Shown here: positions 57,982 through 60,683 of the stretch, piece after piece
Layout of the letters: each line of letters begins with the position of its first letter
Numbering within the stretch: the first letter of the stretch is position 1
Assembly: GCA_017654855.1 (NCBI GenBank)
Contig: CM030332.1
Coordinates: forward strand, 7,750,001-7,814,000
Length of the DNA: 64,000 nt
Reading direction: 5' to 3'
Source: Podospora anserina
Lineage: Eukaryota
The notes under the pieces: model-generated
Told to the model about the DNA's origin: nothing
Seen by the model: only the letters and a program-made list of their open reading frames with translations
Databases searched by the model: none
Program-made: the position numbers and the translations under genes

Positions 57982-59175
57982 GGATGACGACCGGGTCGAA
58001 AACGATGACGGCTGTACGGTCATAACTCTACGATGTGACCGACCCAGGCGCATATACCGACCTCCTCTCCTTACACCTCTGCACCACCAACAATCGATAC
58101 CCCACCTTTCTTTCAGCGACGTATTATTACGGAGAACATATGCTTTGGCGAGCGATTGGCGTATATAGGAGACACGGGGAACGACGGGAGACTGTGGGGG
58201 CGGGGGCGTGTTAATCCTCTTTTCGTACATTGGAAAGACTGGATGGGGCGGCAACAGCATGGGATGGTTCAAGAAGGCAAGCATGGCATCCGGCGTTTAG
58301 GTTGGGCTTCTGTTGGGTGGTTTTTATTTTTGGGTATATATGGGATGATGCGAGTAGGTTTGGCAACGGGATGATTACCCCTCTCACAGTTACTCTTTGT
58401 TGCTTGTAATGATACAAGGGAGGGATTAAATGTACGATACCTACGTCAGGGCGCATGATGCATGAAGGGAAAAAACGGGGGGAGGATGTATGCATTCAGC
58501 AGGGGAGGAAAGCTGGGGTTCTCAAATGGGTGGAAAAGAAAAGGAACGGAAAATTCACGGAAAGGACAAAAAGGTAAAACAGGATCCCTGCTCTTGAAAA
58601 AAGACAAATAAATCCAATATAAACATGGCAAATCAAGCCAAATTCACACTGAGCCGGAGTTCACGAGATAGTAAACTGTGATAGGGAAACTGGGAGGTGG
58701 AAAAACGGGATATCTCGAATTCAATGAAACCAAATAAAAGTCCAAAAGCTAAACCCTCAAGACACTCTCTCCTTGGCTTCCATTCTCCTCCGCTGGCAGT
58801 GAATCGACATGAAAGGAAACAAAACAAAACAAAACAAAACAAAACAGTACAACTGATGCAACAAACAACATTACTCGCCTCCTTTTTGGAAAAAATGACC
58901 AACCAAGCCCGCACACCATCATAACCCCGTCATGCTTTCTAATCATCCAACTTATACGACTCTGGAAACATCCCTTTAGGTGGTTTCTTTTGCAGCTTTT
59001 TCGGTCTCGTCTGCACAGAGAGTGATGGCTGCGGTGGCGCCGACACCGACCTGCTGATGTCCGTTGCCGCCCTCTCCCTCCCGCCAGACCACAACCGCGA
59101 AATAGCCCTCCCCGTCGTCGAAAAGCTGCTGCCGTTCGTAGAAACCGAAGCCGTCGTCTGATCCAATGTCGTTGC

Positions 59176-59177
<2 letters not shown>

Positions 59178-59220
<43 letters not shown>
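59178..59220. repeat. Hexanucleotide repeat (GTGGTC)n, read as (ACGACC)n = poly-Thr on the minus strand
   Basis: About 7 perfect units just downstream of SNX3. Confidence 0.9.
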
Positions 59221-59277
59221 ATTGGTAGTGGCAGTAGAACCCGAGTCAGTCCTCACCAGCTGCCCCGTGACCTCTCG

Positions 59278-59768
59278 TCACCAGGCGTTTCTATCCCAGT
59301 TTGGATCTGTCTCCCATGTTCAGCAACCTCCGTTTTCATGATAGACCCAAGAAAGAGAGCCAACCTACCCTGCACGAACCCGGCCAGAACCTTGCTCCCC
59401 GTCTGCAACAGCGGATGCCCAACCACAATCTTGAGAAACTTCTCCAGCCCGGCCCTCCTGCCCTCAATCACATCATCGCTGAACCTGTTCGTAAACACCT
59501 TCCCCGGCAGCGGCGGGATCGTAACCCTCGCGCTCTCCCTCTCGAGGATATCCCGAAAGTACTCAAAGTCGCTGTATCTCCTCCGGACCGTCGACTGCCT
59601 CAGCTTAAAAGCAGGGATGTTGGTCCGGCAGACGATCTCGTAGTCGGTGTACATGTGCCTACCGATACCGTGGGTGCGGGGGTTGCGGACTTCGATCTCG
59701 AGAAAGTTCTCGGGGGGACCGTAGATCTCGTCAAAGGACTGGGTGCGGGTGTCGGGGAGGGATTGCAT
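59278..59768 (-). CDS. SNX3: Sorting nexin-3, PX domain (exons 59768-59369, 59306-59278)
   Basis: [34 protein letters not shown]...[52 protein letters not shown]...[12 protein letters not shown]. Confidence 0.96.
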
Positions 59769-60683
59769 GATGGGTCGGTGGAGGCGGGCGGCGGCGGCGA
59801 GGGCTTCGGATTGGGAGCCTGTAGGGGAGGTGGGGGATTTGGGAGGCTGGCTTTCGGTGTTGCCAGCCTCGGTGGGAGAGTTGGAAGCCAGGTTGGGCGA
59901 GTCAGTGGGAAAGCTCCCTTGTTGAAGGGGAGCTTGTGGCTAGCTGTGAGGGGGTTGGTGTGGTTTGGGTGAGGGGTTGCAGATGCGCGCGAAAACAAGG
60001 CCGAAGCTGCGCGCGGTGGTTAGATGCTTCTGGGAGAGCAAGTCAGAGCTGTGCGGTGTTGACCGGTGGTGGTGTAAATGTTGGCGCAAACCGGATCAGA
60101 AAAGTTGGTGGTGGAGGAGGGTTGAGGTCGAAGCGGTGATGTGATGCAAGTGAGCGAGAGCTCGCTCCTCATGCTCGTAAAGTGGTCAGCCAAGCCAAGC
60201 CAAGCTCGCAAGGAACGGGCCATGGAAGGTGGGGTAATTCCCGCCGCTCGACGATCTCGGGTCCGGGATCTGGGCCCATGTTTGCCATGTCACACCCTAT
60301 CTACCAGTGAATATCTCACTATACAGATATTAGTGACTTGGTTATTGTCTGCAGTGGCAGTTCAAAGCACGCGCTTGCTCTCAACATGTCAACAAGAAAC
60401 ACGTCACAGACCACAAAACGCCAAGTACGGAATGGGGCCATGCGGAACGGCTTTTGTGATTGCCAATAGTTGTCCCCGAAAGCGCCCAGAACTCCTTCCC
60501 ATAAGCGCAGGTATAAATCCTCATGAATACAATACACACTCCTATGCGTTTCCCTGATGGCTGTGTAAAAGTACTGTTCAAGCCAGCCTACTCTTTTTGG
60601 CATCCGAAACTCGACCAACCAGTTCGACAAATCTTTCTCATCCAAAGCCCCTCCGCCCTCAACCTCTTGTGCCCAAGCCATAC

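Follow-up and report, generated by a model that had tools for sequence, protein, structure and literature searches.

A conserved in-frame extension beyond the UGA stop codon of SNX3 in Podospora anserina and other ascomycetes, probably translated by readthrough

The minus strand of a 64,000-nt stretch of the Podospora anserina genome (contig CM030332.1, forward-strand positions 7,750,001 to 7,814,000; referred to here as the window, with position 1 as its first letter) carries a gene for the sorting nexin SNX3, whose reading frame continues, free of further stop codons, beyond its terminal TGA. The spliced coding sequence (CDS) has 142 codons, encodes a protein with the C-terminus ...DPNWDRNAW* and closes with the letters GCC TGG TGA-C. 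Its identity as SNX3/Grd19 follows from a single PX domain (PF00787, E=1e-20) in a small protein and from several relatives named sorting nexin-3; in a database search with 2058 relatives, the exon 1 product reached 98% identity with proteins that bear the names sorting nexin-3 or Phox-domain protein, and the DPNWDRNAW C-terminus is also found in correctly spliced database proteins. The features of the locus, all on the minus strand, are as follows (nt, nucleotides; UTR, untranslated region).

59369..59768, minus strand: SNX3 exon 1, encoding the PX domain, with start codon ATG 59768-59766 (gene model; Pfam PF00787 PX, E=1e-20).
59307..59368, minus strand: the sole SNX3 intron, 62 nt, GT..AG (skipped in the RNA contigs of 4/4 runs).
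59281..59306, minus strand: SNX3 exon 2, with the final 9 codons (D)PNWDRNAW (gene model; a C-terminus common to 70/80 metagenome loci).
59277..59280, minus strand: putative leaky stop context UGA-C, i.e., TGA 59280-59278 plus C 59277 (TGA followed by C or A in all 37 motif-bearing orthologue loci).
58942..59277, minus strand: candidate readthrough extension of 112 codons, probably disordered, with a high content of Thr (29 of 112) and Ser (15 of 112) (its orthologous counterparts bear a coding signature; covered by RNA contigs that show no joint in it).
59179..59220, minus strand: (ACGACC)x7 microsatellite inside the extension, coding for a Thr run (one 6-nt unit shorter in the RNA contigs of other strains).
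59071..59103, minus strand: inner element ISRLWSGGRER, weakly conserved and present only in the loci nearest the window.
58942..59007, minus strand: conserved C-terminal module RPKKLQKKPPKGMFPESYKLDD, a basic motif plus a K-L-acidic end (consensus P-R-K-L-[RQ]-K-x-x-P).
58939..58941, minus strand: TAG, the second stop of the frame, at which the putative long isoform would end (beyond the second stop, orthologue pairs lose both the bias towards indels of 3n nt and the higher identity).
58247..58938, minus strand: the remaining long 3' UTR (contigs of 4/4 runs extend to at least 58247).

Transcription across this region was assessed with RNA contigs from four runs of four studies; the RNA nature of these runs was guessed beforehand, and the intron missing from their contigs identifies them as derived from spliced RNA. 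In all four runs, the only joint found was the exact skip of 59307-59368, the contigs were unbroken from exon 1 through the TGA, the whole extension and the second stop, and no letter other than the A of the TGA was read at position 59278; as contigs lose rare variants and the developmental stage of the samples is not stated, minor forms could be missed. Since the contigs extend to at least 58247, the mRNA is not polyadenylated before 58940, an event that the first-pass annotation, made from the sequence alone, had named as evidence against its own proposal of a minor long Snx3 isoform produced by stop-codon readthrough.

In the window, the SNX3 frame stays open for 112 sense codons after the TGA (59277-58942), until the TAG at 58941-58939, and on the gene model the encoded peptide is the one that had been read in the first pass. 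The extension consists of 26% Thr and 13% Ser, and its sole Met is residue 103 of 112, in agreement with the earlier statement that no AUG occurs before the last 10 codons. The microsatellite reported earlier is also present, as (ACGACC)x7 at 59220-59179; a unit of 6 nt preserves the frame by its nature, and the repeat is therefore no evidence of selection. A Pfam search with the tail gave sub-threshold low-complexity matches only (New_glue, E=0.009, below the cut-off). Taken on its own, the window provides a marginal signal (P ~0.02-0.05), and it is the comparison with orthologues that carries the significance.

Orthologues were collected as metagenome contigs matched with exon 1 (80 loci, the best 80 of 239 relatives). 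A recognizable DPNWDRN[AS]W* end was kept by 70 of these 80 loci, and the other 10 (L021, L034, L035, L040, L044, L047, L051, L060, L068 and L071) were excluded from all counts; loci that shared the same first 120 nt behind the stop were then merged (14 removed), which left 56 distinct loci. The 900 nt downstream of each stop were searched in three frames for the motif [RK][KR]L[RQTK]K[RKPH]. The motif was found in 37 of the 56 distinct loci, in the SNX3 frame and with zero intervening stops in 37/37, and was never found in frames +1 or +2 of the 900 nt searched. Its consensus is P-R-K-L-[RQ]-K-x-x-P (RPKKLQKKPP in the window), and its K, L and K are invariant in an alignment of 24 sequences (A1), so that the KLQKK-type motif whose conservation had been proposed as a test is indeed conserved, in the form K-L-[QR]-K. 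The linker between stop and motif, which measures 92 codons in the window and 10 to 64 codons in the orthologues, contained 0 stops in frame 0 as compared to 15 and 23 stops in the other frames (1027 codons; Poisson P ~6e-9, a value that, like the others obtained across these loci, is too small because the loci share ancestry).

The presence of the motif was associated with the stop codon's identity. The stop was TGA in 37/37 motif loci as compared to 4/17 assessable motif-less loci (p=2e-9; Fisher's exact test), and the next base was C in 19 and A in 18 of the 37 motif loci. Counting the window, TGA was thus present in 38/38 motif-bearing sequences, with C as the next base in 20 and A in 18, which bears out the expectation from the first pass that the TGA would be conserved. 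Among the assessable motif-less loci, 13 of 17 end in TAA or TAG (and 0/13 TAA/TAG loci have the tail), while in the four motif-less TGA loci the base that follows is G, G, T and G; the tail is hence absent at loci with the stop TAA, TAG, TGA-G or TGA-T. This pattern of stop identity matches the prediction of readthrough. An independent downstream open reading frame (ORF) was considered and rejected as unlikely, because in the window the tail is without an ATG until residue 103 and because the motif is always in the SNX3 frame (37/37 loci).

Conservation of the peptide was also apparent outside the basic core. The end of the window tail, ...TRPKKLQKKPPKGMFPESYKLDD*, aligns with ...RPQRKLRKRPPKGWFEAHKLGDDDG* (L070) and ...APRKLRKRPPKGWAETQALRKLADEED* (L002), and the inner element ISRLWSGGRER aligns with ...ARWRLRLFSGGR... 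(L045; RWRLRLFSGGR), with RWRLRLFTSGR and RWRLKLFTSGR (L007 and L043, respectively) and with LSRLRFLLSER and LSRWRFFLGER (L070 and L003, respectively). Conservation sets in with the first codon after the TGA, for example as L-x-L-A-R-F-A-A-S in several TGA-C loci and as R-F-[SP] in a subgroup of the TGA-A loci. Only 10-22 codons separate the stop from the motif in the TGA-A group; in the TGA-C group, between about 9 and >60 residues lie between the motif and the second stop. We also observed that the second stop of the TGA-A group is again TGA in 16/17 loci with a complete extension, and that the last residues of TGA-A tails, [KR]-[SA]-x-T-[VIL], are conserved right to this second stop. The phosphosite-like motifs RAIS and RSVS, singled out in the first pass, did not hold up, as they are not conserved in the orthologues; R-S-V-S-A-P, located at 59035-59052 of the window tail and likewise not conserved in other loci, is a sequence that we take to fit a 14-3-3 mode-1-like pattern.

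Several analyses addressed how the extension has evolved. Among 38 sequences, the invariant Leu of the motif is written by six codons (CTG/TTG/CTC/CTA/CTT/TTA), which represent both Leu families, and the near-invariant Arg is also written by six codons (AGG/CGA/CGC/CGG/AGA/CGT), from both Arg families; this six-codon spelling indicates selection on the peptide rather than on the RNA sequence. In seven independent ungapped pairs, codon positions 1, 2 and 3 differed by 23, 29 and 61, respectively (p=1.5e-5; chi-square test), with 45 synonymous and 49 non-synonymous codon changes, i.e., the synonymous bias anticipated by the first-pass annotation. The ratio of non-synonymous to synonymous substitution rates (dN/dS) was computable for 18 of 28 subgroup pairs, with values from 0.13 to 0.85 (0.13 for L007/L043 and 0.15 for L003/L070); in the TGA-A group, 66 pairs gave a median of 0.34. 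The frame-preserving indels that had likewise been expected were found: nucleotide alignments of 15 pairs held 14 indels inside the extension, 12 of them multiples of 3, as compared to 20 of 81 after the second stop, and both exceptions inside the extension belong to one pair with 58% identity. Identity inside the extension exceeded that of the following 300 nt in 14 of the 15 pairs. Overall, the extension has evolved like protein-coding sequence, and this signature ends at the second stop.

The best database hits of the PX core were used to place the loci, a rough placement at the level of class as the PX domain is very conserved and score differences are small. The TGA-C loci, with long linkers, are nearest Sordariomycete names; the TGA-A loci, with tails of 31-45 codons, are nearest Leotiomycete names; and most tail-less loci are nearest lichen-forming or Eurotiomycete names. 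The basic motif is common to TGA-C and TGA-A tails, as is a T-Q-x-x-L-x-x-L-x-[KR] stretch behind it, which suggests a single origin. The tail arrangement is an old one. Three Sordariomycete-like loci (L001, L004 and L055) are tail-less, and the tail is thus dispensable in some lineages.

Three public gene models contain the tail. The Podospora pseudopauciseta model P0121 (238 aa) has a tail 92% identical to that of the window, with exon 1 fused to the tail and DPNWDRNAW deleted; the acceptor used, the counterpart of 59275-59274, was deduced from the protein sequence and not from DNA. The models of Diaporthe ilicicola (P0018) and Pseudogymnoascus (P0065) likewise reach the tail through an invented intron, and we read the tail-joining introns of all three models as predictor artefacts. 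Its inclusion in these three models shows that gene finders treat the tail as coding, and anchors it in named genera of two classes. Many public Pezizomycotina models of SNX3 are mis-spliced at the last intron, which is retained, frame-shifting or replaced by an invented intron into the tail (P0004-P0008, P0012, P0016, P0018, P0036, P0065 and P0121 are among these models), and a ...W-D-[RK]-N-x-W terminus is present in only about half of the best 120 database hits. A tail profile compared with longer proteins (8000 candidates scored) gave one match, P0121, and the tail region of L003 had no match among 194 protein candidates. When a profile of the exon 2 end plus the tail was compared with 1.84 billion representative proteins, two fragments were matched, one of them an ORF called inside an extension and the other a sequence of 70 residues with W at the stop position, for which the genetic code used is not known. 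Protein profile searches, which have low sensitivity for such a short motif, found no lineage with a sense codon replacing the stop. In the literature we found no report of SNX3 readthrough, gene-level scores in supplements lying outside this search, and no systematic survey of post-stop coding signatures in filamentous fungi.

The best explanation for these data, and in our judgement a likely one, is that a longer, unannotated form of Snx3 is made through readthrough of the UGA; the comparison of orthologues supports the first-pass proposal to this extent. A fraction of ribosomes would decode the UGA, in its UGA-C context, with a near-cognate tRNA and remain in frame for 112 codons up to the UAG at 58941-58939, which would yield an isoform of 255 residues (142 + 1 + 112) beside the 142-residue protein. 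The predicted tail would be composed of a variable Thr/Ser/Pro-rich linker, the module P-[RK]-K-L-[RQ]-K-[RKP]-[PR]-P and a short hydrophobic and acidic end. We infer the passage of ribosomes through the UGA, its rate and a function of the tail; the open frame, the amino-acid conservation, the association with TGA and the presence in mRNA are direct observations. Near-cognate decoding of the UGA is the best-supported route, given the results on splicing, editing and selenocysteine (Sec) and the UGA-C context. In agreement with the first-pass statement that UGA-C is the leakiest stop context, ribosome profiling of Neurospora crassa identified it as the four-base stop most prone to readthrough (PMC12790415, partial text). 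Two other mechanisms were rejected. Use of the UGA for Sec is not indicated, as no Sec insertion sequence (SECIS) was found by an Rfam search of 58000-60200 on both strands, which gave 0 matches at E up to 1; frameshifting is unneeded, the tail being in the same frame.

A number of observations weigh against readthrough. UGA-A, the stop of half of the loci, is not a classical leaky context. No conserved RNA structure was found past the stop, with 0 predicted pairs in 12 TGA-A loci, and the 123 nt of the window folded less well than shuffles (z=+1.8). In the window itself, dinucleotide shuffles were open for at least 112 codons in 1.8% (600-nt region) or 5.4% (336 nt) of cases, the other two sense frames are nearly stop-free (168 codons after an early stop, and 90 codons), and the GC content by codon position is unlike that of the CDS (0.39/0.66/0.70 in the extension as compared to 0.53/0.42/0.80 in the CDS); an antisense frame is also open for 205 codons in the region. 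The tail of the window is strongly diverged, with a non-synonymous proportion (pN) of 0.44-0.54 relative to the nearest relatives L003, L007, L045 and L070. Among orthologue pairs, L062/L063 showed the dN/dS of 0.85, based on few changes, L074/L078 showed 1 synonymous and 4 non-synonymous changes, and L013/L073 showed 4 and 18, respectively. The tail-less Sordariomycete-like loci and the rough class placement belong here too, as do the phylogenetic non-independence of the loci, which makes the P values too small, and the loss of rare variants from contigs, owing to which a minor spliced or edited form may exist.

If the tail is made, it may act as a docking signal. We hypothesized, tentatively, that the basic motif mediates nuclear import or binding to acidic membranes or an adaptor, and so gives a minor pool of Snx3 another location or partner. 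The P-R-K-L-[RQ]-K-x-x-P core has prolines on its flanks and contains an invariant Leu, and it resembles a docking motif more than an unspecific patch of basic residues. An AlphaFold2 model of the L003 readthrough protein, computed from a 64-row alignment, had low confidence (mean predicted local distance difference test score, pLDDT, of 57.9) and showed the tail as coil. The best match of a profile search of the PDB was a segment of ribosomal protein eS7, at a non-significant E=0.087, with the same R-K-L-Q-K-R core and H-D at the spacing of TGA-A tails; we presume that the nuclear localization signal (NLS) of human S7 is located in this segment. The NLS of human S7 has been mapped, according to a citation in PMC4390217 (partial text), and we do not read the resemblance to eS7 as homology; it serves as a lead towards nuclear import. 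Tail ends resembling a type 1 peroxisomal targeting signal (PTS1) were not found among ...LDD (window), ...EED, ...DDG, ...HTV and ...HTI. The PTS1 consensus is a C-terminal tripeptide.

The main functional rival to docking is that readthrough is real but the tail acts in cis: as a nascent peptide it would stall ribosomes, or make them queue, near the second stop, or else it would serve as a degradation tag through which the readthrough product is removed. Conserved elements do lie near the tail end, close to the second stop, and include a polybasic stretch followed by Pro-Pro; polybasic and Pro-Pro runs have a role in ribosome stalling. The variable distance between motif and second stop in the TGA-C group, however, is hard to square with stalling at one set position, and a generic degron would not require an invariant K-L-x-K core across two classes. 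Despite the precedents of AMD1 for stalling (PMC13025110, partial text) and of tails that arise by stop-loss editing and lower protein level in Fusarium graminearum (PMC13123824, partial text), we therefore regard a cis-acting role as improbable.

Alternative splicing would likewise put the motif in the SNX3 frame, if exon 1 were joined to an AG just past the TGA and an isoform without DPNWDRNAW but with the tail were produced. The first-pass annotation had found no 3' acceptor that enters this frame; this point has to be corrected, as an in-frame AG is present in the window at 59275-59274 and matches the site apparently used by the P. pseudopauciseta model, one of the three public models (P0121, P0018 and P0065) that join exon 1 directly to the tail. 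These models nevertheless resemble predictor artefacts, as many other models of SNX3 are visibly mis-spliced, and the RNA contigs of 4/4 runs show the canonical joint only, although minor forms could escape contigs. The alternative joint would remove nine residues that are nearly invariant in 70/80 loci. It also leaves unexplained why the stop is TGA in 37/37 motif loci and never TAA or TAG, why the next base is biased, and why the frame is stop-free and residues are conserved from the first codon after the TGA. Moreover, the 10-22 codons between stop and motif in the TGA-A group would make a short intron by the standard of fungal intron sizes. We consequently give splicing into the tail little credence as the source of the conserved frame.

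Adenosine-to-inosine (A-to-I) mRNA editing of UGA to UGG during sexual development, by which the stop would be removed as in other stop-loss events of Sordariomycetes, appears less probable still. For N. crassa and F. graminearum, stop-loss edits by which disordered tails are appended have been catalogued by the hundred, but such editing favours UAG (PMC13123824, partial text), a stop present in 0/37 motif loci. The four RNA contig sets, in which minor variants could be missed, show no A>G at 59278, and the tail is equally conserved in Leotiomycete-like loci. The target A would, in addition, follow a G; fungal A-to-I editing prefers U before the edited A. Finally, the idea that nothing functional is present, i.e., that an ordinary GC-rich, low-complexity 3' UTR is open by chance, agrees with the window-only P of ~0.02-0.05, with three open sense frames, with GC by codon position unlike the CDS and with a low-complexity tail whose Pfam match falls below threshold, but it is scarcely credible, as a neutral UTR would not hold one frame open, accumulate 3n indels and maintain a peptide motif despite six-fold synonymous codon variation.

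The 5' end of the gene may add a second layer. In orthologues the protein is extended at its N-terminus by M-A-S...SPTSPT...[10 protein letters not shown]-[ML]-QS (the observation concerns L041, L046, L048, L063 and L012 besides the window), and the window encodes the same peptide, without an ATG, in frame upstream of ATG 59768 (59769-59939, minus strand). The window codon homologous to the orthologue start is CTG 59889-59891, with A at -3 and G at +4, and it lies on the mRNA because RNA contigs reach 59901-59954; at least five other loci have ACG at the homologous start, in an ...AAA ACG GC/TC context with A at -3. These observations suggest conserved near-cognate initiation of an N-extended isoform. 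A more speculative reading, to which we assign a rather low probability, is that SNX3 mRNA is recoded at both ends, by a near-cognate start (CUG 59891-59889) and by UGA readthrough into a tail with an eS7-like basic core, with up to four proteoforms and with nucleus, nucleolus or another partner as the destination of the readthrough form; if true, Snx3 would have a second, unrecognised job in filamentous ascomycetes.

Further observations concern the transcript. The 3' UTR is unusually long, as RNA contigs extend ~1.03-1.08 kb beyond the TGA, and the contigs of three of the four runs end at 58194, 58219 and 58247, a weak hint of a 3' end. A (GTTTT)n microsatellite in the 3' UTR (58804-58856, minus strand) was flagged as a skipped repeat in read mapping. 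The same differences from the window were present in all four studies (G>C at 59185, -6 nt, i.e., one repeat unit, at 59176, -1 nt at 58470 and A>G at 59823), and these look like strain differences, not editing. From the coordinates as we read them, the two differences inside the extension (59185 and 59176) preserve the frame, the 1-nt indel at 58470 lies past the second stop, and 59823 falls on a third codon position in the frame of the N-terminal extension. At the other end, a short C run (mRNA strand) at 59950-59954 is where the contigs of three runs break off, with 13-19 loose G letters (plus strand), and coverage upstream of this break is lower, to ~60127; the break could reflect a major start of transcription, together with cap or polymerase artefacts, or else stem from the assembly.

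The protein described here has in common with the known SNX3/Grd19, a PX-only sorting nexin that works with retromer on endosomes, the PX domain, 98% identity and the DPNWDRNAW terminus; it differs in its tail, which was found in no annotated full-length protein (two fragments in the profile comparison with 1.84 billion representatives). Genome annotation either misses this tail or reaches it via invented introns. The extensions added by A-to-I stop-loss editing in Sordariomycetes, such as that of DBF2 (PMC13123824, partial text), are similar in that a disordered C-terminal tail is added to a conserved protein at a conserved type of stop in the same fungal group; the extensions described in that text, however, have their UAG within a hairpin, arise in the sexual stage only and act as generic destabilisers, whereas the stop before the SNX3 tail is always UGA, the tail has a specific conserved motif, and no structure was found. 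With the conserved readthrough extensions of Drosophila and mammals (PMC3840789 and PMC4132726, partial texts) the SNX3 case shares a frame that stays open, a bias towards synonymous changes and 3n indels that goes no further than the second stop, and the preference for UGA; SNX3 differs from them as a fungal gene, found in two ascomycete classes, for which no stimulatory RNA structure was found.

Well-supported, conserved and functional readthrough in fungal cellular genes amounts to few cases, mostly peroxisomal signals on metabolic enzymes. Such peroxisomal isoforms, known from fungi and animals (PMC4207609, partial text), are alike in the UGA followed by C and in the short conserved signal that ends the extension, and SNX3 likewise offers a minor isoform with a different address from one mRNA. 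The peroxisomal cases in that text use UGA CU(A), whereas the window has UGA CGA, half of the loci have UGA-A and a PTS1-like tripeptide is absent from the tails; the SNX3 host is a trafficking factor and not a metabolic enzyme, and the signal is a basic motif. SNX3 would accordingly represent a core trafficking protein with a tail under selection at the amino-acid level, at loci that resemble two ascomycete classes and that are relatives of many plant pathogens and model fungi, and a clean, testable example for readthrough isoforms in fungal membrane traffic and for the decoding of UGA-C and UGA-A. These data also suggest that scans for coding signatures beyond fungal stops would find more such cases.

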